64,000 nt of DNA from Candidatus Magasanikiibacteriota bacterium (GCA_041666265.1 JBAYHH010000003.1:2020-66019); one strand, 5' to 3'. Shown: positions 1,245 to 18,396, counted from the first letter of the stretch. A program made the numbers and translations. The notes: generated from the sequence alone by a model not told the origin.

Positions 1245-1796
1245 ATGTCTGGAACTATTAAGGAAAAACTGCTCCTCTACCGCCTGCAATCAAAACGAGA
1301 TCCGGACGCCTTTACCGAGCTTTACGATCTATATGTTAAACGAATCTATCGGTTCGTTTATTTTAAAGTATCTGGCAAAGAAGAAGCCGAGGATATCACC
1401 TCCGAGGTGTTTCTCAAGGCTTGGAACTATATCATTAACAATAAAGAAAAAGAGATAAAAAGTTTTAGCGGCCTATTGTATCGGCTCGCGCGCAACGCGA
1501 TTATCGACATGTATCGCCGCCGATCGACTCAACCCCAGACCACGGTGATCCCCGAAGAGTTCGAATTAAGCGATGGGGGAAAGTGGTATGCGGATTTGAG
1601 CCGCAACGCCGACGCTGGACATGTGATCGCCGGACTGAAAAAATTAAAACAAGAATATCAAGAAGTGCTGACGCTAAAATATGTGGACGAACTCGAAGCC
1701 GACGAGATCGCGGAGATCACAGGCAAGGGCGCGATCGCCACGCGTGTCACTCTGCACCGCGCTTTAAAAAAGTTAAAAGAAATCTTGGGTGAGTAA
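1245..1796 (+). CDS. RNA polymerase sigma-70 factor, ECF subfamily
   Basis: Sigma-70 region 2 (DAFTELYDLYVKRIYRFVYFKV...ITSEVFLKAWNY) and region 4 HTH (LKYVDELEADEIAEITGKGAIATRVTLHRALKKLKE). The ORF opens at 1173 but the first plausible Met-initiated N-terminus is MSGTIKEK at 1245. Confidence 0.85.
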   Translation: MSGTIKEKLLLYRLQSKRDPDAFTELYDLYVKRIYRFVYFKVSGKEEAEDITSEVFLKAWNYIINNKEKEIKSFSGLLYRLARNAIIDMYRRRSTQPQTTVIPEEFELSDGGKWYADLSRNADAGHVIAGLKKLKQEYQEVLTLKYVDELEADEIAEITGKGAIATRVTLHRALKKLKEILGE

Positions 1797-3135
1797 TATG
1801 ACTAATAACTTAAAGTCACAACTCAAAGCGCTCAAACATTCTCAAGTTAATCCCTCGAGCGATTGGTTAAATTCCAACCGCGCTTTGTTGTTGTCGCAAA
1901 TCAAAAATACCGTGAGCGCCGATCGCCCGACCGAGAAATTCAACCTCAATAATATCTGGTCGCTTTTGTCTGTCTTTGTTCCTCAAACTTTGGTTTTCAA
2001 TTTTGTTCGTCCGATCGCCGTGCTTCTCATTGTCGCGCTCGTCGGCACAAGTGGTTGGGTCGCGACCGTGGATGCTTCTTATGAGTCGCTCCCGGGCGAG
2101 TGGTTGTATCCGGCCAAACGCGCGGTCGAAAAAACACAGGTGACGATTGCTTCGGTCACCGGCGATAAAAATTCCGAGGCCAAACTGCACGCCGAGTTTG
2201 CCAAACGCCGCGCCACCGAAGTAAAGAAAATCATGACCGCCGAAAAACCGGCCAGCGCCAAAGTGGTCCAGGACACCGTGCAAGATCTCAAAACCGAAAT
2301 TCAAAATGTCAATTCCAAGTTAAACGCCATCAAATCCGACGCGGTCGCCGGTAACGCGCAAAATGTTTCCGCCGACACGGTCAAAGAAGTTAAAACCACC
2401 ACCGATGAGGTCAAGGTGGTATTGGGGTTGATCAAAGATGATCTGCAGTCCGGCACCGGCACTATCGATAATGCTCTCAACAAATCCGTTTCCGAAGTCA
2501 AAGACATGGCCAATGCCACCGCCGTCAATGCGATGGGCGTGATGGTTGAGCAACATTTGAGCGGGGACACGAGCGTCACCAAAGAAGAAGTGAAAAAAGA
2601 ATTGGACAAGACCTTAGCCAGCGCCGCCGCCGATATCGTCGAAAACAAACAAAATGTCGAGGGCGTAAAAACCATCGTGGACGCGGTGACGAGCGAGGTC
2701 AAAGACTTGACCAAAGAAAGCCAGCTCGCCAGCTCAACCATCTCGACCACTACTACCAAAAATCTCACCGATCAAATGACCGATATCGCGAGCACCACCA
2801 AGGCCGCCGCCGTGAAGACCGACGCCGCCGCCGTCGCGGGTGATAAAAAAATCGCCGAGGCCAAAGAAAAAATGAGCCAAAATGATTTATCCGGCGCGAT
2901 GGATTCGGTCAAAGAATTAACCGCCGTCGCTAAAGAAGCGGAAAAAATCAAAGACACCGCGCTCCAAACCGTGCAGACCGTGCAGAATGTTTTGCCGATC
3001 GCGAATTTAGTCAAAGATTTGCCGGTCGTGAGCACGACCGCCGCCAAAGTGGAAATAAAATTTAATAACACCACGCCAGTCGCCACCGGCACATTACCAC
3101 TCAAAATAATCGTCGTCACCAGCACGAAGAAGTGA
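1789..3135 (+). CDS. membrane-anchored anti-sigma-factor-like protein with a long Ala/Lys/Val/Thr-rich coiled-coil region
   Basis: Start overlaps the stop of the sigma gene (GTG at 1789 or ATG at 1798). One predicted TM helix (IAVLLIVALVGTSGWVA), followed by low-complexity coiled-coil-like sequence. Classic sigma/anti-sigma operon position. Confidence 0.55.
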   Translation: MSNMTNNLKSQLKALKHSQVNPSSDWLNSNRALLLSQIKNTVSADRPTEKFNLNNIWSLLSVFVPQTLVFNFVRPIAVLLIVALVGTSGWVATVDASYESLPGEWLYPAKRAVEKTQVTIASVTGDKNSEAKLHAEFAKRRATEVKKIMTAEKPASAKVVQDTVQDLKTEIQNVNSKLNAIKSDAVAGNAQNVSADTVKEVKTTTDEVKVVLGLIKDDLQSGTGTIDNALNKSVSEVKDMANATAVNAMGVMVEQHLSGDTSVTKEEVKKELDKTLASAAADIVENKQNVEGVKTIVDAVTSEVKDLTKESQLASSTISTTTTKNLTDQMTDIASTTKAAAVKTDAAAVAGDKKIAEAKEKMSQNDLSGAMDSVKELTAVAKEAEKIKDTALQTVQTVQNVLPIANLVKDLPVVSTTAAKVEIKFNNTTPVATGTLPLKIIVVTSTKK

Positions 3136-3424: not shown

Positions 3425-6400
3425 ATGAACTTAATTAAAAAAGTATTTACATTCAGCGTAGTAGCGACTACTATCATGTGGTCTCTCGGCGTTGCGGCCC
3501 TCGTACCGGCTGTAGCCCAAGCTGACGATGTATGTCCTTCCGGCTTGGTTGCTGGCGATATGGTCAAAGTGGCCACTTCTCCGGTGATCTATGTCTTGGA
3601 CAACCAAATGAAGGTTGCTACCTTTATCAACAATGCCACTTCCGGCACCGGTAGCGCCAAAGTATATTACAGCGGTTATAAATCATGGAATCTTGACGAG
3701 AACTATTCTTTCAAGGCCGTGTCTTTTGACTGCTTAAATAAACTCGGATGGTCCACCCAATCGGTTGGTCCTCGCCCGGGTTCTTATGTGATCAAACACC
3801 CGGCTGATGGCAATTTGTATGCCGTTGGTTTGGGTCGCACTTGCTACAAAGTTACTGACGCCCTCGCGAAGCAACTTTATGGCACCAATTACAAGGCTTA
3901 TCCGTTGTCCACTACCCAGGAATTTTCCGGTATGTGCGCCAATGGCGTAGGTGTTGATTGGACTGAAGCCAAAGCCCACCCGGGTATGTTGGTTTCCAAA
4001 GATGGAAAAACTTATTTCGTGAATTCCGACAAGACACTCACCGAGATTACTGCTGAAGGCATGACTGCCAACCGCGTGAAATCTTCTTGGGTGCGCGCGT
4101 TGGATGCCGCTTTGTTGCCGGCCGTCGGCACTGCCGTCGCTGTCACCAAATATGAATCCGCGTTGGGTGATCGCTCACAATCGGGCGTCGCTTCCGCTGG
4201 AAATGACACTGTCGCGACTGGTGCGTTGACTGTCTCTTTGAGCGCCAACACTCCGGCTGCGACCAATTTACCGGATGGCACTTCCTTTAATCCGATTTTA
4301 AAGTTTACTTTAAATGCGGGTCCGGAAGCTGTCACTGTTAGTGGTGTTACCCTCAAAAAGGGTGGCTATGTTCTCAATACCAACATTTCCGGTATTGATA
4401 TCGTGGATGGCAGTGATGTCCGCCATGGTAATGTAGTTTCCTCTGTCAATTCCGACAATGAAGTTCTTATTTTGTTCGGTTCCAACCCAGTGGTTGTACC
4501 AGCCGGCGGTTCTGTCACTTTGACTGCTCGTGTTAACCTCGGCGCTTCTGCCGGTGGTAGCACCGTGAAGTTAGGTGTCAAATCCGTTGTTTCTACCGCC
4601 GCTACCGTTGGTGGTTCATTCCCATTCTATGGCAATGAATTCAATACTGTTGATGGCGCCAATGCCGTTGCTACCGCTTATTTTGATGCATTATCCGTGT
4701 CTGGTTCTGCCGGTACAGATCTGAATGCCGATGCTGATAATGAGCAAGAAATTACCAAATTTCGCTTACAGGAGTATGGTAGCAAAGAGGATCTCAAATT
4801 ATATAAATTAGTCCTCTTCAACTACGGCAATGCTGCGGATGCTGATTATAAGGATGTGCAATTGGTTTCTGCCGATGGTACAGTGCTTGCCACTGCTCAA
4901 CCGGCCAGCCAGTATGTAACCTTTGATCTTTCCGCTTCTCCGTATCTCATTGCCAAGGGTCAATACAAAGATCTTACTGTTCGTGCCAAAATCGTGAGCG
5001 GTACTTCCAAAACCATTCAATTCGTCGCTTATAATGACTACGATGTAATGGTTAAGGGTTCTGACTCCGGTTCTTATGTGTTGCCCACGGTTTCCGGTGG
5101 TGCTGGTTATGAATCTACTTTTCCAGTAGGTGATTTAGGTGCTGCAAGTGTTACTACTTTCAACAAAGTAACTATCGCCGCTGGTACTCTTAGTTTCAAC
5201 AAAGATACCACTTCCCCAACTTCCGCAGTTGCTCCAGGTGCCTCCAATGTTGTCTTGGCTAAATATTATGTCAAGCCGACTGGCGAAAACATGGAGTTAC
5301 GCAAAGTTAGTTTTGGTATTATCCAAACTGACTCCGCCCTTACCGGTAATGTCTATGTAAAAGTAGATGGTGCTACCGTGTGGAGTGGAGCCGTCAATAC
5401 CACTGAATTTCCTTTAGCTGGTACTGTTGGAACCAAGACCCTCAACACTTATCCGATTTTGACTGCCGGCAAGAATGCGTACATTACCGTTGAAGGTTCC
5501 GTGCCTTCCACTGCCACTTCGACCGTGCGCTATACAGTCAATGATTTTGACATCACTGAAGTCAAAAAATTGACCAGCAATACAATTGCCGATCCCGCAG
5601 TCAATACTGCTGATGGCAATCAAATCTCGGTGAATGCGGCTTCGTTATCCGCCAAGACTCTGTCCACTCCGGTGGCCCAGAATATCATTAGCGGTGCAAC
5701 TGGTTTCACTTTCGCCCAGTTCGAACTTAGTGCTAACACTTCTGGTGAAGATGTGCGTATTTCGTCCATTGTTGTTTCAAATGTGGGTACTGGTACTACT
5801 ACTAATATCCTCAATTTGGCTCTCTGGGATGGAACCACTCAATTAACCACCAGCAACAACACTGGTACCGGCGCTGCTTCCACCACCTTCTCCTTGACTA
5901 GCCCGTTGGTTATTACCAAGGGAACTACCAAGACATTGGTGTTAAAAGCTGATTACATTGGCACAACTGCTAATGTCACCCACAAGTTCATGTTGCACAC
6001 CGTTACCGCTACTGGCAAGGATACTGGCACCTCTGTCACTCCTTCCGTTTCCGGTATGGGTCAAGCCATGACTACTGCCTCTGGTCCGACTGTCACTTTG
6101 TCTCTTGTGTCTGGTACCGGCGCCGCGCCGAGTGCCAACCAAGTGGTACAAGTTGCCACCAATGATGGTACTTATTTTGCCTTCAAGATCACTCCGTCCA
6201 ACGAAGCGATCAAGTTGACAACTCTTAAGTTAACCGCCACTGGTACTGGTCTCAATACCAACGATGTGACTAACTTACGGTTATATCGTAACAGTGAAAC
6301 TACTCCGTTCCAGAGCTTGGGTGAAATGACCTGCTCGAGCAATTCCTGTACTGCTACCTGGGGCGGTAGTACTACCGACAACTTATTGCCGGAAGCTGTA

Positions 6401-7102
6401 CAGCCTGGTAGTCCGGTCACCGTCTATTTGAAAGCGGATGTTGGTGCGGCTGGTGTAGCCAAACTTGGAGATGATTTCACCTTCAAGATCAATGCTACCA
6501 CCACCGATTTCGTAGCCAAGGGTGCTACTACCAATGGCTCTGCTCATATTACCGGCACCCCGACAGCTTCTGGCGCCACTCACATTGTACCGTTCACGGT
6601 CAAGGTAGAAAGCGTTTCGCCGACTACCCCGGCCACAATCGGTCTTAGTACTGGTGCTACTGTTGGTGTGTTCAAGGTAACCAACCTTGGTAACGCCCAG
6701 GTTGCTCTTACCAAGCTCAGTTTTGCCAACGGCGGAGCCTCGACATCTTCATTGAATTTTGCTTTGAAGTATTCTACTGACGGCGGCGCGCAAACCGATA
6801 CTACCGGTGGCACTGCTTCAACCACAGCGACCAATCGCGTTGACTTCGGTACTCTTGATACTGCTGTTACTATTAACGGTGGTTCTTGGAGATACTTCAC
6901 AGTCAAGACATCTGGAACTGCTGTCAATTATGATACTTTCCAGTTGTCGGTGAGTTTGTTGGGCGACATTGTGTATAAAGTCAAAGATATCGATCTTGGT
7001 TATGACGGCGATACTGCCGGCGGTATTACTGATACTTATGCCAACACTGGTCTATATACCAGCGGTCTCCCGGCTCTCGAAAGCGTTACTGCTCGTAGCT
7101 AA
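3425..7102 (+). CDS. large secreted Thr/Ser/Gly/Val-rich cell-surface (S-layer-like) protein
   Basis: 1225-aa ORF with a signal peptide (MNLIKKVFTFSVVATTIMWSLGVAALVPAVAQA). The rest is low-complexity T/S/G/A/V-rich sequence with beta-strand-like periodicity and no recognisable enzymatic motifs. Confidence 0.7.
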   Translation: MNLIKKVFTFSVVATTIMWSLGVAALVPAVAQADDVCPSGLVAGDMVKVATSPVIYVLDNQMKVATFINNATSGTGSAKVYYSGYKSWNLDENYSFKAVSFDCLNKLGWSTQSVGPRPGSYVIKHPADGNLYAVGLGRTCYKVTDALAKQLYGTNYKAYPLSTTQEFSGMCANGVGVDWTEAKAHPGMLVSKDGKTYFVNSDKTLTEITAEGMTANRVKSSWVRALDAALLPAVGTAVAVTKYESALGDRSQSGVASAGNDTVATGALTVSLSANTPAATNLPDGTSFNPILKFTLNAGPEAVTVSGVTLKKGGYVLNTNISGIDIVDGSDVRHGNVVSSVNSDNEVLILFGSNPVVVPAGGSVTLTARVNLGASAGGSTVKLGVKSVVSTAATVGGSFPFYGNEFNTVDGANAVATAYFDALSVSGSAGTDLNADADNEQEITKFRLQEYGSKEDLKLYKLVLFNYGNAADADYKDVQLVSADGTVLATAQPASQYVTFDLSASPYLIAKGQYKDLTVRAKIVSGTSKTIQFVAYNDYDVMVKGSDSGSYVLPTVSGGAGYESTFPVGDLGAASVTTFNKVTIAAGTLSFNKDTTSPTSAVAPGASNVVLAKYYVKPTGENMELRKVSFGIIQTDSALTGNVYVKVDGATVWSGAVNTTEFPLAGTVGTKTLNTYPILTAGKNAYITVEGSVPSTATSTVRYTVNDFDITEVKKLTSNTIADPAVNTADGNQISVNAASLSAKTLSTPVAQNIISGATGFTFAQFELSANTSGEDVRISSIVVSNVGTGTTTNILNLALWDGTTQLTTSNNTGTGAASTTFSLTSPLVITKGTTKTLVLKADYIGTTANVTHKFMLHTVTATGKDTGTSVTPSVSGMGQAMTTASGPTVTLSLVSGTGAAPSANQVVQVATNDGTYFAFKITPSNEAIKLTTLKLTATGTGLNTNDVTNLRLYRNSETTPFQSLGEMTCSSNSCTATWGGSTTDNLLPEAVQPGSPVTVYLKADVGAAGVAKLGDDFTFKINATTTDFVAKGATTNGSAHITGTPTASGATHIVPFTVKVESVSPTTPATIGLSTGATVGVFKVTNLGNAQVALTKLSFANGGASTSSLNFALKYSTDGGAQTDTTGGTASTTATNRVDFGTLDTAVTINGGSWRYFTVKTSGTAVNYDTFQLSVSLLGDIVYKVKDIDLGYDGDTAGGITDTYANTGLYTSGLPALESVTARS

Positions 7103-9057: not shown

Positions 9058-9357
9058 ATGAGTCCCAATATACAAGAAATTAAAAAAATTGCCTCGCCTT
9101 TTTTTAGAAGCCATGGCGTTAAGCGGGCGGCGGTGTTTGGTTCGGTGGCTCGCGGTGAAGCTACGAGAAATAGCGATATCGATATAGTCGTCGAATTCAG
9201 GGGTAAAAAAAGCCTGCTTGATTTAGTGGCGCTGGAGTTGGATTTGGGAGAGCAGTATAGCCGGAAAGTGGATGTTGTAACCTATAATTCACTTCACCCT
9301 TTATTGCGCGATCGTATTCTCAAAGACCAACATATTATCTATGGGCAAGGATCCTAA
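9058..9357 (+). CDS. MNT-type nucleotidyltransferase antitoxin (HepT/MNT type VII TA system)
   Basis: AAVFGSVARGEATRNSDIDIVVEF NTase motif; 99 aa; overlaps the downstream HEPN gene by 17 nt. Confidence 0.8.
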   Translation: MSPNIQEIKKIASPFFRSHGVKRAAVFGSVARGEATRNSDIDIVVEFRGKKSLLDLVALELDLGEQYSRKVDVVTYNSLHPLLRDRILKDQHIIYGQGS

Positions 9358-9688
9358 AATTTTTCTGGCGCATATCTTAGAAAGCATCGATCTGATTGAA
9401 GGGTACACCAAAGGAAAAAAGGAAACGGATTTTGTCCGTTCGGTTGATTTGCAGGATAAAGTAATTCGTCGTTTGGAAATTGTGGGCGAAGCTGTTCGTC
9501 ATCTTCCGGAAACTTTGCGCCAGAATTATCCGGAGACGCCTTGGCGGCAGATTGCCGGTACGCGCGATAAATTTATTCACGAATACTTTGGCGTGGATAT
9601 GGCTTTGACATGGGAGATCGTAAAGCGTGACTTGCCTAAATTAAAAAAGCAGATTTTAAAAATTGAAGAAGATTTGAGTAAAAATTAG
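9341..9688 (+). CDS. HepT-like HEPN (DUF86) RNase toxin
   Basis: 115 aa with the R-x4-H-x-Y HEPN motif (RDKFIHEY), placed immediately downstream of the MNT gene. Confidence 0.8.
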   Translation: MGKDPKIFLAHILESIDLIEGYTKGKKETDFVRSVDLQDKVIRRLEIVGEAVRHLPETLRQNYPETPWRQIAGTRDKFIHEYFGVDMALTWEIVKRDLPKLKKQILKIEEDLSKN

Positions 9689-9959: not shown

Positions 9960-10730
9960 ATGCTCAAAATCGGCATTATCGGCGGATCCGGTCTCGACGA
10001 TCCGAAAATTTTAGAAAATTCGCGCGATTGGGAAGTGAAAACACCCTATGGCGCGACCTCGTCACTTTTGAAATTAGGCGAGATCGCTGGGGTCGAAGTG
10101 GCTTTGATCGCTCGCCATGGACGCGAGCACACCGTCCCGCCCACGCAGGTCAATTACCGCGCCAACATTTGGGCGCTCAAAGATTGGGGAGCGACGCATA
10201 TCCTCGCGACTACCGCCGTGGGGTCACTGCGCGCAGAGATCGGGCGCGGACACTTGGTGGTGCTGGATCAGTTTATAGATTTTACTCGTCATCGTTTTTC
10301 TTCGTTTTACGAGTCGTTTGAGGCGGGAAAAAACGGCCACACGCCGATGGCTGATCCGTTTGATGAGAAATTGCGTGATTTGTTTATCGCCGGGTGCCGT
10401 GATTTGAGTTTGACCCATCATCCGCGCGGGACAGTGGTGACGATCGAGGGGCCGCGGTTTTCCACGCGCGCCGAGAGTCACATGTTTCGCGCCTGGGGAG
10501 CCGATGTGATCAATATGAGCATCGCGCCCGAGGCCGCGCTCGCGCGCGAGCTCGGTTTGCCCTATGGCGCGGTCGCGATGTCCACGGATTATGATTGTTG
10601 GAAAGCCGACGAGGAGCCGGTAACCCACGAGGCTGTGCTCAAAGTCTTCGCGCAAAACGCGCACAATGTCACCAATTTATTGGTCGAGGTGATCAAGAAG
10701 ATAAAAGCTGTTTATCAACTGTCATCCTGA
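9960..10730 (+). CDS. mtnP: S-methyl-5'-thioadenosine phosphorylase (PNP family 2)
   Basis: IGIIGGSGLDDP N-terminus, ...ALIARHGREHTVPP..., ...VINMSIAPEA...: MTAP-type phosphorylase. The stop codon TGA lies inside a family A repeat (cTG TCA TCC TGA). Confidence 0.85.
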   Translation: MLKIGIIGGSGLDDPKILENSRDWEVKTPYGATSSLLKLGEIAGVEVALIARHGREHTVPPTQVNYRANIWALKDWGATHILATTAVGSLRAEIGRGHLVVLDQFIDFTRHRFSSFYESFEAGKNGHTPMADPFDEKLRDLFIAGCRDLSLTHHPRGTVVTIEGPRFSTRAESHMFRAWGADVINMSIAPEAALARELGLPYGAVAMSTDYDCWKADEEPVTHEAVLKVFAQNAHNVTNLLVEVIKKIKAVYQLSS

Positions 10731-10747
10731 GCGAAGCGAAGGATCTC
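10720..10747 (+). repeat. family A repeat (minimal unit)
   Basis: tgtcatcctgagcgaagcgaaggatct. Confidence 0.8.
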
Positions 10748-10770: not shown

Positions 10771-11305
10771 TATGCCTGAAATTTTAAAACAAAAAATTCG
10801 CACGGTGCCGGATTGGCCCAAAAAGGGGATTATGTTTCGCGACATCACGACCTTGCTTGGCGACGCAGTTGGATTTAAGCGAATGTTGGATTTGCTTCAC
10901 GCGCATTACCGAGATTTTAAAATTGACAAAATTTGCGGGATCGAAGCGCGCGGGTTTATTGTGGGCGCGCCTTTGGCCGATCGGCTCGGCGTCGGTTTTG
11001 TGCCGATTCGCAAAAAAGGCAAATTACCGGCCGAGACGATCAGTGAAGAATACGCGCTCGAATACGGCACGGATAAGATCGAAATGCATTTGGATGCGCT
11101 CTTGCCCGGTGAAAAAGTTTTGCTCGTTGATGATCTCATTGCCACCGGCGGTACGGCCCTCGCCGGCTGTAATCTGATCAAAAAAGCGGGTGGGGAAGTG
11201 GTGGAGTGTTGTTTTGTGGTGGATTTGCCTGATCTCGGAGGAAAGAAAAAACTCGAGTCCTCCGGCTTTAAATCTTTTGCGCTCATGGAATTTGCGGGTG
11301 ATTAG
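10771..11305 (+). CDS. apt: adenine phosphoribosyltransferase
   Basis: MPEILKQKIRTVPDWPKKGIMFRDIT..., VLLVDDLIATGGTALA PRPP-binding motif: classic APRT. The ORF-track start at 10595 is an artefact from translating the upstream repeat (VILSEAKDLH). Confidence 0.9.
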
Positions 11306-11309
11306 TAAT

Positions 11310-11408
11310 TGTCATTCCCGCGAAAGCCTGCCTGTCCGGTAGGTAGGCGGGAATCTACGCTGTCATTCTGACCTGCCTGCCGGCAGGCAGGGCGAAACGA
11401 AGAATCTA
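11310..11408 (+). repeat. two family A repeats with long GC-rich palindromic inserts
   Basis: tgtcattcccgcgaaagcctgcctgtccggtaggtaggcgggaatct and tgtcattctgacctgcctgccggcaggcagggcgaaacgaagaatct. Confidence 0.8.
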
Positions 11409-11520
11409 TTCGCTCGGCAAAAAAAGTTATCCACAGGCCAAAATTCCAAAAGTGTGCTATACTATTTGCGGGGAGGGAAAACAATCCGCCAGCGTGCGGA
11501 TTGTTTTTATAAAAGGGTAT

Positions 11521-11592
11521 CACTGTCATCCCGACCCATCGCATTGTCATCCTGACTCTCAACGCTGTCATCCTGAGCGAAGCGAAGGATCT
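11521..11592 (+). repeat. three tandem partial/complete family A repeats
   Basis: tgtcatcccgac..., tgtcatcctgac..., tgtcatcctgagcgaagcgaaggatct. Confidence 0.75.
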
Positions 11593-11631
11593 CCAAGTCA
11601 AATATTCATATTCACTTTTAATTAAAATAAT

Positions 11632-12153
11632 ATGATCGGCCAAACGCGTTCGTCGGTAATTATCCTCGCGATAATTATTTTTGTTTTAGGATTGGTTTTG
11701 ATCGTTGGCGGGTATGGTTGGTTTTTAAAAAAACAAGCACGCGTTTTGGTGGGCACGGCCCGGCCGACATTTCCCTATAGTGATTACAGTCAAGCCGATT
11801 TGAATCGGCTTTATCCGCAAGAAATTGATTATTCCGGCGTGCCCGACAAGCAAACACCCGAGCAGACCCATGCGTTATTTTTGTCCGCTTTGAAAAAAGG
11901 AGATTTTGACGCGGCGGTGAATTGTTGTTTTCGAGCGGGGGATAGAGAGAAGACAAAAGAGTTTTTGAATGGCGTCAAACAAAAAGGGATGTTGAATTTG
12001 ATGATTAGTGATATTACAAATATTGATCCCGACTTTCGATCAGAGAATAAAGCGACTTATGTTTACGATGGTACATGGAATGGGAAAAAGATCGCGAATT
12101 TTATGCAATTTATGAAATCTCTGGATGGTATTTGGTATATTGAAAAATTGTAA
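11632..12153 (+). CDS. hypothetical membrane-anchored protein
   Basis: 173-aa ORF with an N-terminal TM helix (VIILAIIIFVLGLVLIVGGYGWFL) and no recognisable motifs. Confidence 0.45.
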   Translation: MIGQTRSSVIILAIIIFVLGLVLIVGGYGWFLKKQARVLVGTARPTFPYSDYSQADLNRLYPQEIDYSGVPDKQTPEQTHALFLSALKKGDFDAAVNCCFRAGDREKTKEFLNGVKQKGMLNLMISDITNIDPDFRSENKATYVYDGTWNGKKIANFMQFMKSLDGIWYIEKL

Positions 12154-12171: not shown

Positions 12172-15100
12172 ATGCGCAGGAGGATATTTTTGTTAGTGGT
12201 ATGCTCGCTCGGCTTTTTGTTTCCCGGGCGGGCTTTTTGTTATGACACCAATGTCGCTCATCCCAATATTGTGGGGTTGGCGGCCGAAGCGTATAACACC
12301 GCTTTTCCAGACAAACAATTGAGTACCGACGATATTGCTCAAATCAAACAAGGGGCGATCGACGAAGATGTGCCAACCCGCTGGCTCAATCATTTTTATG
12401 ACCCGATCCATAATCACGGTGTTTGGTTTTTGGGAAATTTTTCAACTGCGGTGGACTGGGCGCAAGACCCCAATAGCCAAACGAATTTTTCTTTGGGCGA
12501 CGAAAGTTGGCAAAGAGCGCTTAAATATATGGCCGATGGTGATCGCGCCTCGGCGATGCGCGCTTTGGGTCACGCTGTGCATTTATTATCTGATATGAGC
12601 GTGCCGGCGCATACGCGTAATGATATTCACCCGGCTGGCGATTCATTGGAGCAATATGTGAAAAATAATTGGAGCAAGATTTCGTTTAATCCGAAATATT
12701 CATTTCAAACAGTGAAAAGTTTGAATGACGCGTTTTATAATTTGGCTAAATTTTCCAATGGAAATTTTTATAGTGATGATACAATTGAGAGTGATAGATA
12801 CAAGATAGTTAGCATTCGTGGATATGATGCCAAGGTAATTGATAAGCATGAATATTTGTTAGCAAAAGATAGGGACGGCAATATATTATTTGCTACTGAT
12901 GGTTCCGATTGGAAGGTGAGTAATAAAACTGTGAATTTAAGTAATATCCTCTCCTCCTACTCCTCCCGCCTCATCCCGGCCGCAGTATCCAATAGCGCCG
13001 GTCTAATTGATTTATTTTTTCGTGAAGTAGCCAAAAATGAAAAACAAAAAGTGCCGATTTTCAAAATCACTGTCACCGGTATTTGGGATAGTATCAAAGG
13101 ATCGATTGTCACCGGAGCCGAATATTTAAGCAATCTTTTGGGTGTGGGCGATGGGCCGAGTTTGACCACTCCACTATTGCGTCAATTAGACATAAAAATG
13201 ACCGAATTGGGTGAGGCCGCCCAAAACGACGGGGTTTTCAGCGACCCCAATGATGCGGCGGATACGGTGATAGAGCCTGTTGCCGGTGAAAATTTGGGCT
13301 CACAGATACCACCTACGCCTCCGCCACCGGCGAGCGGGTCGAGAAATCAGCCCCCAATAACCAACCCAACGACAAACCCGACGATTGGTGGTGGATCAAA
13401 TGACGGCACTGGCACCGGCGGTGGCTCGTCATCGGGCGGTGGCTCGTCTTCCGGCGATCCGACTATCACTCCGACCTCTACCATAGAAACACCGACCCCG
13501 ACCACCACACCCACTTCGACACCCTCTGATCCGGATCCGACTCCTACCACCACGCCTTCATCCACACCGATCATCGCGCCATCCGCACCCACATTGTCCG
13601 CGATATTTTCCGATACGATTTACACCACTTCGTCCGACGCGATTATTTCCGGCTCTTGTTCCACTACCACTGTCCAAATTTTTTATTATTTTTCCTCATC
13701 CACAATTGCGTCACCGCCGTCCATCGAAACCGGCACGATTTTTCCATCTATCGATAGTTGGTCAGTCTCGACCACTCTGATCGCCGGTCACAATTATTTT
13801 TATTTTGTCGCCATTGACTCGGCCGGCATCACTTCGACGCTTTCGGCGCCGGCGCATTTTATATTTGACACCGTCGCTCCGCCGATTCCGATCATCACTG
13901 TGACCAATAATTCCGATATTTCCTCCGCCAGTTTGCGTGTGGCGCTAAGCAGTATCGATGCGCTTTCACCGCCCACTTTTTTTGATTTATCCGTCGCCCC
14001 CTCGTCGACTACCGGTACCGTATGGCAGGAAATTTTTTCCAATTCCACCACCGTCGAATACGATTTTTCCGGCGCGCGTGGTCAAAGCTATTTTTTTCGC
14101 GCCCGCGCTCGCGACTATCTCGGCAATACTTCGGACTGGAGCGATGCGGTCGCGTCGAGCACGCTGTCATATATCGATTGGAGCAAACAAATCGTCATCA
14201 ACGAGATCGCCTGGGCCGGCACCAGTAATCTGACCGCGAGTGATGAGTGGATCGAATTATACAATAATTCCGATAGCGACATATTTTTTGCCAGTACCAG
14301 TAGCGGCCAAAGTTATGTGCTCAAAGTAAATAATACCGCGCTTTCGTGGAGAACAATCGCCAACGCGACCATTCCGGCGCGCGGATATTATTTGCTCGAG
14401 CGCACCGGTGATACCACCGTCGCCAATGTTAGCGCCGATGTCGTGTTTACTTTGGGTAGCGGTATTTCCAATACCGCCGCCAAAGTCGAGTTGTTTAGTC
14501 CGACCGGAGAAAAAATTGATGAGGTGGATTGTTCGGCCGGTTGGTTTGCCGGCGGCGGGACCAATTACCGGTCGATGGAACGCCTCAATGTTTTGGCGCG
14601 CGGGAGCGAGGCGAGTAATTGGCGGACCAATATCGGTCCGCGCTCGGGTCCGCAAACTTCGCGCGGCGGCACTCTGTATGGCTCGCCCAAGACATCGAAT
14701 TTCGGCAACGCGATCATCATGGAAGGCGCGCAAGAAAGCGCGACAGCGACATTGCATAGTTACGACAATCCGTTATTTTTATGGTATTACACGGTGCCGG
14801 TCGGCAAGACGCTCAATATTGAAGCCGGGACAGTGATCAAAAGTTATGCCAACGATGTGAAATTTACGATCAATGGAAATTTAAATATTAATGGCACGCC
14901 CGAAGCGCCGGTGATCTTGACTTCCGGCCGCGATCAGTCTTTTGCCGATGCGAAATTAAATACTACCGTCGGCACATTGCCGGCCGGCGATCCCGCCCCG
15001 GGTGATTGGCAGGGGATACAATTGTTCGCGGGCGCGCAGGCGACGGTGGAAAATTTGGATTTGCGCTATGCGGGTCATGCTTTTCGACCGCCGGGCGCGG

Positions 15101-16062
15101 GCATGTGGACACCCAATGTGAGTCAGGCTCTTCGTGCAGACAACGCGCACTTGACCGTGGCTAATTCAAAATTTAATAATAATTTAGGGACTGCGATTTA
15201 TACCAAAAATACCACCACCACTGTGCGTGATTCGGTTTTTGCGAGTGGGGATAGAGGCATCGAGACTTTCGGCAACCCCTTGAATATTTCCAATTGCAGT
15301 TTTTCCGGATTTACCAATGCGCAGGGTGCTGCCTATATTGCCGATAAATTGCCGACCGTGTCGGGTCTGTCGTTTTCCGACAATACCGTCGATCGATTGT
15401 ATATGGATTTTGTCGTTATTTCCGAACCGACAGTTTTATTTGCCAAAGAATTGGCGCAATCAGTGATCGTATCCAATATTTCGGTGCCGGTATCCACGAC
15501 CCTCACGATCGAGCCGGGCGCGAACATCAAAATGATCAGTTCGGGCAATTTCGATGTTTCGGGATCGCTCCAGGCCGTCGGCACGGCCGAGAGTCCGATC
15601 ATCATCGAGCCGTTCGCTGATGGCAACCGGTGGGGGCAAATTTTATTTCATAATTCCACCTCTTCGCTCGCGTATGTTGATTTGAAAAAAGGAAATTACA
15701 AATCGCCATCGTGGCCCGCTGACAATGGCGTGATTTGGGCGGAAAATTCTGATTTGGAAATGCGTCGTGTGCGAATCTTGGATACTGACCGGCCGTATTA
15801 TTCAGTGCAAGGAGTAAATTCGCGCCTCTCACTGACGGATTGCGAAATAAGTGATGCGACCAAATATGTCAATAGCTCAAACTATGCCTATGGCGTGCGG
15901 GCGCGGGGTGGCAGTTTGGCTTTGGATAATACCAATTTTTCCAATATTTATGGCGGGGTATATGGTACCGACAGTGTGGTTTTGACATTGTCCAATATGT
16001 CGCCGTTTAATTTCAACAATATTGATGTGATTTGGTCGCCGGTGGATTTGGGAGCGATTTAG
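12172..16062 (+). CDS. large secreted multidomain protein: Zn-dependent phospholipase C/P1-nuclease-like domain, Pro/Thr linker, lamin-tail domain, right-handed beta-helix repeats
   Basis: Signal peptide. NHFYDPIHNHG and ALGHAVHLLSDMSVPAHTRNDIHP match the HFWDPD and YLGEAMHYFGDIDTPYH Zn-ligand motifs of bacterial zinc PLC. A PT-rich linker spans about aa 380-470. INEIAWAGT...DEWIELYN...GYYLLER is a lamin-tail domain. The C-terminus carries repeated NxxG/beta-helix-like segments. Confidence 0.65.
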   Translation: MRRRIFLLVVCSLGFLFPGRAFCYDTNVAHPNIVGLAAEAYNTAFPDKQLSTDDIAQIKQGAIDEDVPTRWLNHFYDPIHNHGVWFLGNFSTAVDWAQDPNSQTNFSLGDESWQRALKYMADGDRASAMRALGHAVHLLSDMSVPAHTRNDIHPAGDSLEQYVKNNWSKISFNPKYSFQTVKSLNDAFYNLAKFSNGNFYSDDTIESDRYKIVSIRGYDAKVIDKHEYLLAKDRDGNILFATDGSDWKVSNKTVNLSNILSSYSSRLIPAAVSNSAGLIDLFFREVAKNEKQKVPIFKITVTGIWDSIKGSIVTGAEYLSNLLGVGDGPSLTTPLLRQLDIKMTELGEAAQNDGVFSDPNDAADTVIEPVAGENLGSQIPPTPPPPASGSRNQPPITNPTTNPTIGGGSNDGTGTGGGSSSGGGSSSGDPTITPTSTIETPTPTTTPTSTPSDPDPTPTTTPSSTPIIAPSAPTLSAIFSDTIYTTSSDAIISGSCSTTTVQIFYYFSSSTIASPPSIETGTIFPSIDSWSVSTTLIAGHNYFYFVAIDSAGITSTLSAPAHFIFDTVAPPIPIITVTNNSDISSASLRVALSSIDALSPPTFFDLSVAPSSTTGTVWQEIFSNSTTVEYDFSGARGQSYFFRARARDYLGNTSDWSDAVASSTLSYIDWSKQIVINEIAWAGTSNLTASDEWIELYNNSDSDIFFASTSSGQSYVLKVNNTALSWRTIANATIPARGYYLLERTGDTTVANVSADVVFTLGSGISNTAAKVELFSPTGEKIDEVDCSAGWFAGGGTNYRSMERLNVLARGSEASNWRTNIGPRSGPQTSRGGTLYGSPKTSNFGNAIIMEGAQESATATLHSYDNPLFLWYYTVPVGKTLNIEAGTVIKSYANDVKFTINGNLNINGTPEAPVILTSGRDQSFADAKLNTTVGTLPAGDPAPGDWQGIQLFAGAQATVENLDLRYAGHAFRPPGAGMWTPNVSQALRADNAHLTVANSKFNNNLGTAIYTKNTTTTVRDSVFASGDRGIETFGNPLNISNCSFSGFTNAQGAAYIADKLPTVSGLSFSDNTVDRLYMDFVVISEPTVLFAKELAQSVIVSNISVPVSTTLTIEPGANIKMISSGNFDVSGSLQAVGTAESPIIIEPFADGNRWGQILFHNSTSSLAYVDLKKGNYKSPSWPADNGVIWAENSDLEMRRVRILDTDRPYYSVQGVNSRLSLTDCEISDATKYVNSSNYAYGVRARGGSLALDNTNFSNIYGGVYGTDSVVLTLSNMSPFNFNNIDVIWSPVDLGAI

Positions 16063-16166
16063 ATTTGATTAACATGGGTAAATATTCGCCGTATCTTCGT
16101 TTGACACTATCGTCGTTTTTCGCTACAATATTGACGCTGGCATGGCCAGTCAAGTTTTGTTTTATT

Positions 16167-16278: not shown

Positions 16279-18396
16279 ATGAAAAAACAAATCGAAATGT
16301 TTATTAAAGGCCTTATTTACGCCTCGTTTTTTGTCCCACTCATCGTTATTCCCTCGTCGTTTATATTTCCGTTTATCGTTCCAAAAATTCTCGCCTTTCG
16401 TACGATTACCGAGCTGATGATGTGCGCTTACGCCTTGCTTTTGGTGATTAATTGGCGTGAGTATCGGCCGAAATTTACCGCGCTCAATTTGGCTTTGGGC
16501 GCGTTTTTGTTGAGTTTTGCTTTGTCGACATTTATTGGGGTTGATCCGTATCATAGTTTTTGGGATAACCACGAGCGTATGTTGGGCCTGTTCACCATCG
16601 CGCATTTTGTCGCCTATTATTTTATTTGCACCGCGGTTTTCAAGACCTGGAGCGATTGGAAGTGGGTGTTGCGGATGTTTTTGATTGGGGGGTCGATCGT
16701 GATGTTTATTGGGGTGTTGCAAGCATGGGTCAATCCGAGTTTGCTTTTAAACAATGGTGCCGCCACGCGTGTGGCCAGTAGCTTGGGCAACGCTATATAT
16801 GTTGGTGGGTATGGTTTATTTTTGTCTTTCGTAGCAGTTTTACTATTTTTGCGTGAAAATAATCCGGTTTGGCGTTGGGTTTATGCAATTCTTGGTATTT
16901 TTGGTGTTTTGGGGTTATTTTACAGCGGTACGCGCGGGTCAATGCTTGGTTTTGTAGCTGGCGCGGGTGTCGCCATGATCGGATATATTATTGCGTTGAA
17001 AGAATACAAAAAAACCCGCCTTGCTTTGATTGGTTTGGCGATTGCCGGAGTGATTTTAATTTCTTTATTTTACATTTTTCGACAAACTGCTTTTGTGAGA
17101 AATTTGCCGGCAGTGGGTCGCACTGTCAACACATCGTTGTCCGATATTGAACGCAGCCCGCGTTGGATTGCGTGGCAAATCGCCATCGAAAGTTGGAAAG
17201 ATCGTCCGATTTTTGGCTGGGGTCCAAATAATTTCTTTTATGCCTTTAACGCGCATTATAATCCCAAGTCGTTGAATTTTGGTTATGGTGAAACCTGGTT
17301 TGATAATGCGCACAATATTATCGTCAATACCTTGGCAGTGCAGGGTGCGTTTGGTTTGATTATATATTTAGCAGTGTTCGTAGTTGGTATCATTAGTTTG
17401 GTAATAGCTTGGAAGAATAATCAACTAAATTATCATATCGCGATTATTGGTAGCGCGTTTTTGGTAGCGCACCTCGTCGGCAATGTGACGGTATTTGAAA
17501 ATCCCACTTCGTATTTGTATTTTATGTTTTGGTTGGCGCTCATAAATAGCGTTTCTGCCACACCTGTCATCCTGAGCGCAGCGAAGGATCTTCACTGTCA
17601 TCCTGAGCCTTGCCTATCGGCAGGCAGGCGTAGCGAAGGATCTAATCGTGTCATTCCCGCGAAAGCGGGAATCCACGGTGGCGACAAGCCCATCAGCTCC
17701 GGCCTTGTCATTGGCGCCGGCGTATTCGCCTTGCTTTTAATTTTTATTTTCAATATCCAACCGGCGCGCGCCAATATGCAGACGCTCGACGCGATTCGTT
17801 ATCTTTCGCAAGATCCCGTTCTCGGTGTTTCTTATACCAAAACCGCGTTGGCGTTTAATTCACCACACATCGATGATATTCGCGCTGACATTGGCCGTAC
17901 TGCCACCCAGATGCTATCGGGCTCGGCCGATAAGCTCGGCAAAGAGCGTAGTCAAGAAATTTTTGAAATCGTTTATCCCGAGTTACAAAAAAATTTGATT
18001 TTACATCCTTTGGACATTCGCAATCAAATCACTTTATCGCAAATGGCGCAGATTGGCTATCAGATCACCAATAATGGTAAATATATCATGGAGGCGCAAA
18101 CGATGCTTGAAGATGCCTTGGTTAAGTCTCCTCGTCGCCAGCAGATTATTTACAGCTTGTCCGCGCTTAAGATGCAGTTAAATCAGGCTCCCGAAGCGGT
18201 GAAATTGCTCGAGCAGACTATCGCGGACAATCCCAATATTGGCGAGAGTTATTGGCGCTTGGCTTATGCGTATAAATTTTTGAATCAAGCAGATAAAATA
18301 GACGAAGTTTTGGCTTTGGCCGAAAAAAATAGCGTTATATTTACCGATGCGGAAAAAAATATTATCGCGCAAATAAAAACCATGCCGGCTAAATAA
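16279..18396 (+). CDS. O-antigen ligase-like (Wzy_C/WaaL family) polytopic membrane protein fused to a C-terminal TPR domain; carries an in-frame family A repeat insertion
   Basis: Multiple TM helices and a Wzy_C-like loop (YSGTRGSMLGF...FGWGPNNFFYAFNAHY...AHNIIVNTLAVQGAFGL). C-terminal TPR-like repeats. Residues encoded by 17561-17683 (TPVILSAAKDLHCHPEPCLSAGRRSEGSNRVIPAKAGIHGG) are a translation of three family A repeats. Confidence 0.75.
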   Translation: MKKQIEMFIKGLIYASFFVPLIVIPSSFIFPFIVPKILAFRTITELMMCAYALLLVINWREYRPKFTALNLALGAFLLSFALSTFIGVDPYHSFWDNHERMLGLFTIAHFVAYYFICTAVFKTWSDWKWVLRMFLIGGSIVMFIGVLQAWVNPSLLLNNGAATRVASSLGNAIYVGGYGLFLSFVAVLLFLRENNPVWRWVYAILGIFGVLGLFYSGTRGSMLGFVAGAGVAMIGYIIALKEYKKTRLALIGLAIAGVILISLFYIFRQTAFVRNLPAVGRTVNTSLSDIERSPRWIAWQIAIESWKDRPIFGWGPNNFFYAFNAHYNPKSLNFGYGETWFDNAHNIIVNTLAVQGAFGLIIYLAVFVVGIISLVIAWKNNQLNYHIAIIGSAFLVAHLVGNVTVFENPTSYLYFMFWLALINSVSATPVILSAAKDLHCHPEPCLSAGRRSEGSNRVIPAKAGIHGGDKPISSGLVIGAGVFALLLIFIFNIQPARANMQTLDAIRYLSQDPVLGVSYTKTALAFNSPHIDDIRADIGRTATQMLSGSADKLGKERSQEIFEIVYPELQKNLILHPLDIRNQITLSQMAQIGYQITNNGKYIMEAQTMLEDALVKSPRRQQIIYSLSALKMQLNQAPEAVKLLEQTIADNPNIGESYWRLAYAYKFLNQADKIDEVLALAEKNSVIFTDAEKNIIAQIKTMPAK
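17565..17676 (+). repeat. three family A repeats lying in-frame inside the CDS at 16279..18396
   Basis: tgtcatcctgagcgcagcgaaggatct; tgtcatcctgagccttgcctatcggcaggcaggcgtagcgaaggatct; tgtcattcccgcgaaagcgggaatc. The last is a perfect 8-bp stem with a GAAA tetraloop. Confidence 0.8.

Follow-up and report, generated by a model that had tools for sequence, protein, structure and literature searches.

A Secreted Lamin-Tail Protein with a Predicted Zinc Phospholipase C-Like Head and a Conserved, Putatively NTF2-Like Partner in Candidatus Magasanikbacteria

Introduction

In the zinc-dependent phospholipases C (PLC), as in P1 nuclease, the ninth metal ligand is provided by the backbone of a tryptophan that forms the N-terminus of the mature protein. 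The surface 3'-nucleotidase/nuclease of trypanosomatids, a surface zinc phosphoesterase in a nucleotide auxotroph, offers a physiological analogy for what such enzymes may do, and the small Imm-NTF2 proteins serve as immunity proteins of polymorphic toxin systems. Bacteria belonging to the candidate phyla radiation (CPR), also called Patescibacteria, are without pathways for lipids and nucleotides, and their uptake of these compounds from hosts is largely unknown. Bacterial lamin-tail domains (LTDs) go together with phosphoesterases and nucleases that are secreted or membrane-associated, and what the LTD itself does is not known (PMC6085458, PMC8289736); in Shewanella ExeM, which combines an LTD with an OB-fold and an EEP nuclease domain, membrane or surface targeting has been proposed (PMC6085458). 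Here we describe a locus which touches on each of these systems, in a stretch of 64,000 nucleotides from a Candidatus Magasanikiibacteriota bacterium (GCA_041666265.1, JBAYHH010000003.1:2020-66019; hereafter the window). It comprises a gene at positions 12172-16062, which encodes a protein of 1296 amino acids (aa), and a smaller gene directly upstream, at 11632-12153. Very probably, the larger gene encodes a secreted multi-domain protein whose head is a trinuclear-zinc phosphodiesterase domain of the PLC lineage, working with an NTF2-like membrane protein encoded by the smaller one. The fold and the chemistry are already known, as is the association of LTDs with phosphoesterases. The head family, its distinct invariant residues and its near-obligate NTF2-like partner appear to be undescribed; literature searches that paired CPR or Magasanikbacteria with phospholipase C or the lamin tail domain returned nothing relevant to any of the three.

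The Gene and the Architecture of Its Product

The open reading frame (ORF) at 12172-16062 (+), for which the first-pass annotation had given the correct coordinates and length, is a real, conserved gene. An identical protein was called in two independent assemblies, on a 117-kb ENA metagenome contig and in a Logan assembly. Its closest full-length relative, P0065, shares 49% identity over the entire length and bears no annotation beyond 'lamin tail domain-containing protein [Candidatus Magasanikbacteria bacterium]'. Among GTDB genomes, the nearest relatives come overwhelmingly from Magasanikbacteria and other Patescibacteria, in keeping with the small-genome, episymbiont-like organism that had been suggested at first pass. 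Read from the N-terminus, the protein comprises a Sec-type signal peptide, an all-alpha N-terminal domain, a linker rich in proline, threonine, serine and glycine, an fn3-like spacer, an LTD and two duplicated beta-helix modules; each of the parts named in the first-pass annotation was recovered, as detailed below. That annotation had missed the upstream partner gene at 11632-12153, which is the most informative new feature of the locus.

A Head Domain on the Phospholipase C Side of the Superfamily

The predicted catalytic domain, residues 24-295 (12241-13056, +), has an all-alpha Zn-PLC-like fold. An AlphaFold2 model of residues 1-324, with a predicted local distance difference test score (pLDDT) above 85 over residues 30-200 and 256-291 and below 50 at residues 295-319, is all-alpha in the head save for one beta-hairpin insertion at residues 218-241. 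When this model was compared with the PDB by Foldseek, the top 17 matches were zinc PLCs, including Bacillus cereus PC-PLC (E 2e-6, target TM score 0.65), clostridial alpha-toxins and Listeria PlcB, whereas the best nuclease of S1/P1 type, 3w52, reached only E 0.72 and a TM score of 0.28-0.33. A profile of the head family, built from 20 homologs (alignment A1), retrieved only zinc phospholipases C from all PDB sequences (Listeria PlcB at E 2.8e-4, B. cereus PC-PLC at about 5e-4), with no S1/P1 nuclease matching at E up to 10. Profile-profile alignment with hhalign gave a probability of 91.5% over 113 columns for the family against PC-PLC of B. cereus (PLC_Bc), and 8.9% over 27 columns against S1 nuclease, where the aligned columns amount to the shared H-x3-D-x5-H motif alone. 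A phmmer search of the PDB with the full-length protein returned only artefacts of the low-complexity linker, and NCBIfam gives the head domain no family name.

The head thus clearly lies on the PLC side of the superfamily and not on the P1/S1 side. The first-pass annotation had placed the domain in the Zn-PLC/P1 superfamily, with which neither the model nor Foldseek conflicts, and had left the choice between a phospholipase and a nuclease open; the superfamily stands, and within it the head falls with the PLCs. The same results bear on an alternative that we regard as unlikely, namely nucleic-acid scavenging, in which a head resembling P1/S1 nucleases or trypanosomatid 3'-nucleotidase/nucleases would degrade extracellular DNA, RNA or 3'-nucleotides at the surface of a nucleotide-auxotrophic CPR cell and so feed it, with the LTD helping to engage the substrate. 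Both in sequence and in fold the head is far nearer to PLC than to S1/P1, and no nuclease was matched in the PDB profile search.

Candidate Metal Ligands and the Predicted Mature N-Terminus

The motifs reported at first pass, NHFYDP (residues 73-78), LGHAVHLLSDMSVPAHTRND (residues 132-151) and HAVHLLSDMSVPAH, are present, and NHFYDP and LGHAVHLLSDMSVPAHTRND align with H69 and with H118, D122 and H128 of B. cereus PLC. The alignments pair the PC-PLC ligands H14, D55, H69, H118, D122, H128 and E146 with H30, D66, H74, H137, D141, H147 and E160 of the head, respectively, and the spacing H137-x3-D141-x5-H147 is identical to that of H118-x3-D122-x5-H128 in PLC. Residues H30, D66, H74, H137, D141, H147 and H153 are kept in 163-164 of 164 family sequences, and the column of E160 holds glutamate or histidine in 161 of them. 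No histidine of the family aligns directly with H142 of PLC; D157 is not conserved, and H153 is invariant. The predicted ligand set would comprise the backbone of Tyr24 and the side chains of H30, D66, H74, H137, D141, H147, H153 and E160, a complete set of candidates; the missing ligands that the first-pass annotation had named as grounds for refutation were not observed. Seven further residues, E65, R70, W96, W113, R149, D151 and S201, are invariant and particular to the family.

The signal peptide, residues 1-23 (12172-12240, +), consists of MRRR, a hydrophobic core and AFC; the sequence runs MRRRIFLLVVCSLGFLFPGRAFC followed by YD, and the predicted cut would leave Tyr24 as the mature N-terminus. 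Its presence, already proposed at first pass, accords with the pre-sequences of the whole family, in which a hydrophobic core is found in 157 of 158 members, position -1 is alanine, serine, glycine or cysteine in 145 of 158, position -3 is alanine, valine or serine in 122 of 158, and the median length is 25 aa. The column that follows directly on this conserved signal-peptidase site is occupied by tyrosine (61), phenylalanine (48), leucine (44) or tryptophan (8), and a ligand drawn from the backbone does not strictly require tryptophan there. From this residue to the first histidine ligand the distance is five residues in 93 of the 158 sequences and six in 64, a predicted spacing that would be like that of P1/S1 and unlike that of PC-PLC (13 in PLC_Bc). 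Nucleic-acid scavenging gains some support here, as an N-terminal residue standing 5-6 positions before the first histidine recalls the pair W1 and H6 of P1/S1, and the invariant R70, four residues after the ligand D66, recalls Arg48 of P1.

Near-absolute conservation of the ligands and a precise signal-peptidase site are the outcome expected from purifying selection on an active site. On our reading, a trinuclear-zinc phosphodiesterase machinery would be intact and under strong selection, with a pocket unlike those of known PLCs. The same observations make it highly improbable that the protein is a non-catalytic adhesin, whose PLC-like head would be an inactive binding module in a protein serving for attachment only. 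A large, multi-domain, repeat-rich protein with binding-type modules, and with a head that scores below the Pfam cutoff, would suit such a role; the near-absolute ligand conservation over 164 diverse sequences, and the conserved signal-peptidase site that would create the N-terminal ligand, speak against it.

The Upstream Partner Gene

The partner gene (11632-12153, +) encodes 173 aa and ends 18 nt before the enzyme gene; its product has 58 homologs, belongs to no Pfam family, and is 100% identical to the Candidatus Magasanikbacteria hypothetical protein WCT40_01305. It consists of a short N-terminus bearing lysine and arginine, a transmembrane helix (about residues 9-31), a conserved juxtamembrane motif RVLxGTARPxFPYSDYS and an alpha+beta ectodomain, putatively NTF2-like or cystatin-like (residues 76-172), in which a CC pair is nearly invariant, at 90% or more (alignment A3). 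The AlphaFold2 model, with a pLDDT of 88.8 overall and above 94 for residues 71-173, contains four helices and four strands in this domain, which Foldseek consistently pairs with NTF2-like or cystatin-like structures of the PDB, at weak scores (best E 5e-3, TM score 0.35-0.5).

Linkage of the two genes was surveyed by tblastn, which placed partner homologs beside many of the relatives, and then by a profile hidden Markov model of the partner on 74 related loci with at least 500 bp of upstream sequence. A partner homolog was found in 67 of the 74, always upstream on the same strand, and either no more than 700 bp away or overlapping the enzyme gene. The pairing is seen both with and without an LTD and beta-helix on the enzyme, which ties the partner to the catalytic domain. 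In metagenome-assembled genomes with two enzyme paralogs, each paralog has its own partner and both genes have diverged, the enzyme domains being 73% and the partners 59% identical in one pair of loci (L007/L009), and 59% and 45% in another (L017/L018), from which it follows that the two genes duplicate together, as a cassette. Enzyme and partner identities are correlated (r = 0.73), which was discounted as evidence of interaction because it is expected from shared phylogeny.

The charge distribution of the partner mildly favours an N-in/C-out orientation, and in four loci of Nitrospirota and Desulfobacterota the gene upstream of the enzyme gene encodes an Ig-repeat protein that bears a signal peptide and ends in the partner domain. 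From these secreted versions outside the CPR and from the charge distribution, the partner domain is most likely extracytoplasmic. The four loci (L078, 3180-7106; L079, 3206-7559; L081, 3906-7161; L083, 3831-8058) have the layout of a three-gene module, with the secreted Ig-repeat protein ending in an NTF2-like domain, an ORF of about 200 aa and the PLC-like gene; the middle ORF is seen in L081 and L083, and the version in L079 starts like a carboxypeptidase-regulatory-like domain.

Size and Distribution of the Family

A search of 1.84 billion cluster representatives with the head profile retrieved 8,600 proteins at a threshold of E <= 1e-3, of which 3,021 also pass E <= 1e-30, and the head domain is N-terminal in every member. 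The family occurs mainly in Patescibacteria, with distant members in Desulfobacterota, Nitrospirota and Rokubacteria, and the whole architecture of head, stalk, LTD and beta-helix is present in about 25 of the best 150 representatives. Among 66 diverse members examined with Pfam, most tails are unannotated and a few contain beta-propellers, which is uninformative as to the substrate. Several TPA metagenome bins (L005, L008, L017-L020, L041, L063 and L074) carry a gene pair of Patescibacteria type, at 35-56% identity and with Magasanikbacteria-like synteny, and the title of these records, 'uncultured Gammaproteobacteria bacterium', is probably a placeholder or a mislabelled taxonomy.

A Proposed Mechanism

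The explanation that we favour, and to which as a whole we would give about an even chance, treats 11632-12153 and 12172-16062 as the two genes of one conserved module in a cell of Candidatus Magasanikbacteria (CPR). Sec would export the large protein, and cleavage by signal peptidase would expose Tyr24, whose amino group and carbonyl, by analogy with Trp1 of PLC and P1, would join H30, D66, H74, H137, D141, H147, H153 and E160 in a trinuclear zinc site able to hydrolyse a phosphodiester bond by PLC-type chemistry. The head would be carried on a long, flexible stalk rich in proline and threonine, below which the fn3-like spacer, the LTD and the beta-helix modules most likely bind polymers of the envelope or surface and so position the enzyme. 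The membrane-anchored partner, with its extracytoplasmic NTF2-like domain, would work alongside the catalytic domain at the membrane of the producer, its most likely role being that of a docking subunit or of a regulatory one (inhibitor or chaperone). As substrate we would prefer a membrane or envelope lipid of a neighbouring (host) cell, cleaved at the phosphodiester bond of its head group. For this last element, PLC-type cleavage of a lipid head group, the proximity of the head to PLCs in fold and sequence brings us to a near-balanced judgement, falling if anything slightly short of an even chance.

A bolder version would see in the pair a lipid-harvesting device of CPR episymbionts, in which the head cleaves host phospholipid head groups and the partner takes the diacylglycerol-type product to the membrane of the symbiont. 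The NTF2-like fold typically encloses hydrophobic ligands, and this version draws on how the folds are assigned, on the linkage of the genes and on the outward orientation that is predicted; we consider it very unlikely.

Several observations weigh against a lipid substrate or qualify the catalytic scheme. The Pfam profile of zinc-dependent PLC (PF00882) matches the isolated head at E 0.011 and 16.2 bits, below its cutoff of 26.8, and does not match the full-length protein; among relatives it gives weak matches in 6 of 21 at E <= 0.01 and in 4 of 66 at E <= 0.001, the best being E 5e-5. H153 is likely the counterpart of PLC H142, by conservation rather than by direct alignment. Residues E4, Y56 and F66 of PLC_Bc, which form the phosphocholine head-group (choline) pocket, have no conserved counterpart in the family: the position of F66 is a variable column (serine 60, tryptophan 52, valine 19), the Y56 region is absent, and the shortened N-terminus is without an equivalent of E4. 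With the choline pocket not conserved, the invariant R70 and R149 suggest a different, more anionic substrate. The analysis establishes the gene, its domain composition, the class of fold, the conservation of the ligands and the pairing of the two genes; metal binding, catalysis, substrate, and the role and topology of the partner are all what we infer, and from its linkage and fold the partner might serve as docking site, inhibitor, chaperone or product acceptor. The genomic context and two points in favour of nucleic acids, which are taken up below, pull in the same direction.

Domain-level evidence lends nucleic-acid scavenging part of its appeal. A relative of 1342 aa, P0115, joins the head with an SNase domain, inserted at about residues 420-551, after the head and before the tail of LTD and beta-helix (E 3e-16 in Pfam, 8.8e-8 by BLAST to SNase); this insertion is a hint, and the sole direct one at the level of domains, of nucleic-acid targeting in the family. 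Fusions of the LTD to PLD-like, SNase, MBL, OB-fold and HhH domains occur elsewhere, which agrees with the view in the literature of LTDs beside phosphoesterases and nucleases; extracellular nucleases, ExeM for one, contain LTDs, and so do DNA-degradation loci (PMC6085458, PMC8289736). The LTD of ExeM is, however, dispensable for DNA degradation (PMC6085458).

Genomic Context

Just upstream of the gene pair lie two purine-salvage genes, PNP (9960-10730) and APRT (about 10805-11305), which would suit a scavenger of nucleic acids. Their adjacency is found in only three close relatives (L004, L010 and L025), and a perfect 12-bp hairpin at 11478-11507 (+), aaaacaatccgc / gcggattgtttt, with a loop of 6 nt and a T/A-rich sequence behind it, lies between the two pairs; a functional tie to PNP and APRT was rejected on these grounds. 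The hairpin, read from the sequence and not listed by a consensus terminator scan, is likely the transcript end for PNP-APRT and would split these genes from the enzyme-partner pair.

Unbiased clustering of 641 neighbouring ORFs identified as recurrent a Wzy_C protein (14 loci), a secreted, repeat-rich 1225-aa protein (11 loci), an NDP-sugar dehydratase/epimerase (8 loci), a PaaX_M-like protein (8 loci), a GT4 glycosyltransferase (7 loci) and a UDP-glucose dehydrogenase (5 loci). Nuclease, nucleotide-salvage or lipid genes were not recurrent among these ORFs, which counts against nucleic-acid scavenging also. The context of the enzyme gene is one of cell-envelope and glycan biogenesis, and not of lipid or nucleotide metabolism. 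In the window, the gene is followed by one for a Wzy_C (O-antigen ligase/polymerase-like) membrane protein of 705 aa with C-terminal TPR repeats (16279-18396, +; PF04932, E 3e-21), a homolog of which is found no more than 6 kb from the enzyme gene in 13-14 loci, distant Parcubacteria among them. At 16101-16129, the best promoter-like site (11/12) stands before the Wzy_C gene, which probably forms a separate transcription unit.

This context raises the alternative that the enzyme remodels the envelope at the surface of its producer, cleaving glycopolymers linked by phosphodiester or pyrophosphate bonds, or lipid-linked glycans (teichoic-acid-like polymers, polyprenyl-PP-glycans), while the beta-helix binds glycan and the partner localises the enzyme. 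Besides the recurrence of Wzy_C, GT4, NDP-sugar dehydratase/epimerase and UDP-glucose dehydrogenase genes, such a role would fit the beta-helix/NosD-type modules, which are typical carbohydrate-binding or -processing folds, the position of the enzyme gene at the head of a glycan-biosynthesis cluster of about 40 kb, and the invariant R70 and R149, which may suit a doubly anionic substrate. On the other hand, to our knowledge no enzyme of the Zn-PLC fold acts on teichoic-acid-like polymers or polyprenyl-PP-glycans, and in small genomes the genes for surface proteins and those for glycans often lie together without belonging to one pathway. Moreover, the Wzy_C link is seen in about 17% of loci only, the loci are phylogenetically non-independent, and members of the family outside the CPR stand in different contexts. 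We judge this alternative rather improbable, and retain PLC-type cleavage of a membrane or envelope lipid as the preferred reading.

Several other features of the window were recorded. The secreted, repeat-rich 1225-aa protein is encoded at 3425-7102 (+); it is of beta type and has no Pfam match, a DUF5667 protein is encoded upstream at 1789-3135 (+), and the protein may be a surface-layer or cell-surface component of the same surface-protein neighbourhood. Between about 20000 and 58000, the GC content is 0.33-0.38, compared with 0.42-0.51 in the first 20 kb, and the GC skew is strongly positive; this region, which may be a glycan island that was acquired horizontally or differs in composition, coincides with a same-strand polysaccharide run of about 40 kb with methyltransferases, glycosyltransferases, a Polysacc_synt flippase and a dTDP-sugar isomerase. 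A 25-nt repeat, GTCATCCTGAGCGAAGCGAAGGATC, of which no copies are expected by chance, occurs three times, at 10721-10745, 11567-11591 and 17566-17590: two copies lie at gene ends or between genes, and one, with a single mismatch, lies in the Wzy_C ORF, where it reads SAAKDLH in frame. The intergenic region 11306-11631 is crowded with related GTCATTC/GTCATCC units, and the whole may represent a small dispersed repeat element. Further upstream, overlapping genes at 9058-9357 and 9341-9688 (+) encode a nucleotidyltransferase (NTP_transf_2/Polbeta) and a HepT-like protein, a pair which resembles toxin-antitoxin systems of MNT/HepT type; the gene calls of L001 put a second NTP_transf_2 just upstream.

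The Stalk and the C-Terminal Modules

Behind the head, a connecting segment (residues 296-378; 13057-13305, +) is partly helical, modelled with low confidence and weakly conserved. It leads into the low-complexity linker (residues 379-478; 13306-13605, +), whose composition of 23% proline, 24% threonine, 15% serine and 13% glycine, 75% in all, bears out the PT-rich linker described at first pass. The spacer that follows (residues 479-665; 13606-14166, +) is a beta-sandwich and at least partly fn3-like, since a search with its family profile retrieves the fn3 domains of titin (E 1.3e-9) and chitinase A1 (7.8e-4) as well as FN3con; Pfam fn3 is seen in 3 of 21 relatives, the 1296-aa protein itself has no Pfam match in the spacer, and NCBIfam gives a weak, sub-threshold match to MXAN_2561 at residues 554-661.

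The LTD (residues 672-786; 14185-14529, +), likewise recognised at first pass, matches PF00932 at E 9e-8 and 32.9 bits, 1.4 under the cutoff of 34.3, and every one of the 21 full-length relatives matches the profile too, the best at E 1.9e-15. The C-terminal 466 aa comprise two beta-helix modules that are internal duplicates of each other, 26% identical across 217 aa (E 5e-8). Module 1 (residues 831-1095; 14662-15456, +) is right-handed and holds the match to PF13229 at residues 990-1079, which at 34.3 bits in the full-length protein and 40.1 bits (E 3.6e-10) in the isolated region is above the cutoff of 25.9 and upholds the beta-helix of the first-pass annotation; PF12708 also gives a weak match. 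Module 2 (residues 1096-1296 and the stop codon; 15457-16062, +) is recognised by its similarity to module 1. A direct reading of the C-terminus found neither a transmembrane segment nor a sortase motif. The combination of LTD and beta-helix module also occurs without the PLC-like head.

Significance and Comparison with Known Systems

A family of 8,600 cluster representatives, labelled only 'hypothetical' or 'lamin tail domain-containing', is thus predicted to carry the full catalytic signature of trinuclear-zinc phosphodiesterases, and annotators gain a family model that has been missing. Enzyme and partner make up a defined two-component surface system for experiments in cultivable CPR-host pairs. 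If the substrate were a host lipid or nucleic acid, the pair would provide a direct molecular handle on the nutrition of episymbionts and, if lipid harvesting were true, a concrete mechanism for the supply of lipids to bacteria unable to make fatty acids or phospholipids.

Among the systems with which the locus can be compared, the polymorphic toxins and their Imm-NTF2 proteins would share with it a small protein, here of putative NTF2 fold, that is encoded in tight linkage with a secreted hydrolase; the pair described here duplicates as a cassette. The partner described here differs from Imm-NTF2 in being encoded upstream and not downstream, membrane-anchored, probably outward-facing, and conserved across phyla rather than hypervariable; a place upstream of the enzyme gene and conservation across phyla are both untypical of immunity genes, and the enzyme-partner pair is without toxin-delivery domains. 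ExeM resembles the 1296-aa protein as a secreted or surface phosphoester hydrolase bearing an LTD, but its catalytic superfamily is unrelated (EEP as opposed to Zn-PLC), its LTD is N-terminal, it has a C-terminal anchor, and no NTF2-like partner gene has been described for it. The P1/S1 nucleases and trypanosomatid 3'-nucleotidase/nucleases (PF02265) have in common with the family the H-x3-D-x5-H motif, an N-terminal aromatic residue five positions before the first histidine and an arginine shortly after the aspartate ligand, whereas the likeness beyond these features is limited to the 27 columns aligned at 8.9%, with a Foldseek E of 0.72, a TM score of about 0.3 and no match in the PDB profile search.

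The closest described relatives are B. cereus PC-PLC (1ah7), Listeria monocytogenes PlcB (8cqm) and the N-domain of Clostridium perfringens alpha-toxin (PF00882), which have the same all-alpha fold, with the seven PC-PLC side-chain ligands aligned, and which are likewise secreted; in the family, as in them, the mature N-terminal residue would be placed to complete the metal site. Identity to the family is about 15%, and the differences are consistent ones: the N-terminal residue is tyrosine, phenylalanine, leucine or tryptophan in the family and an invariant tryptophan in PLC; the first histidine lies 5-6 residues from the N-terminus as against 13 in PLC_Bc; and H153, the likely counterpart of H142, is spaced differently. 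Unlike PC-PLC, the family has no conserved choline pocket, and has the additional invariant residues E65, R70, W96, W113, R149, D151 and S201 as well as the beta-hairpin insertion. Finally, whereas members of the PC-PLC group stand alone or with a PLAT-like domain, the head of the 1296-aa protein is fused to a stalk of about 1000 aa made up of linker, fn3-like spacer, LTD and beta-helix, and the family, unlike the PC-PLC group, is accompanied by a near-obligate upstream partner gene.

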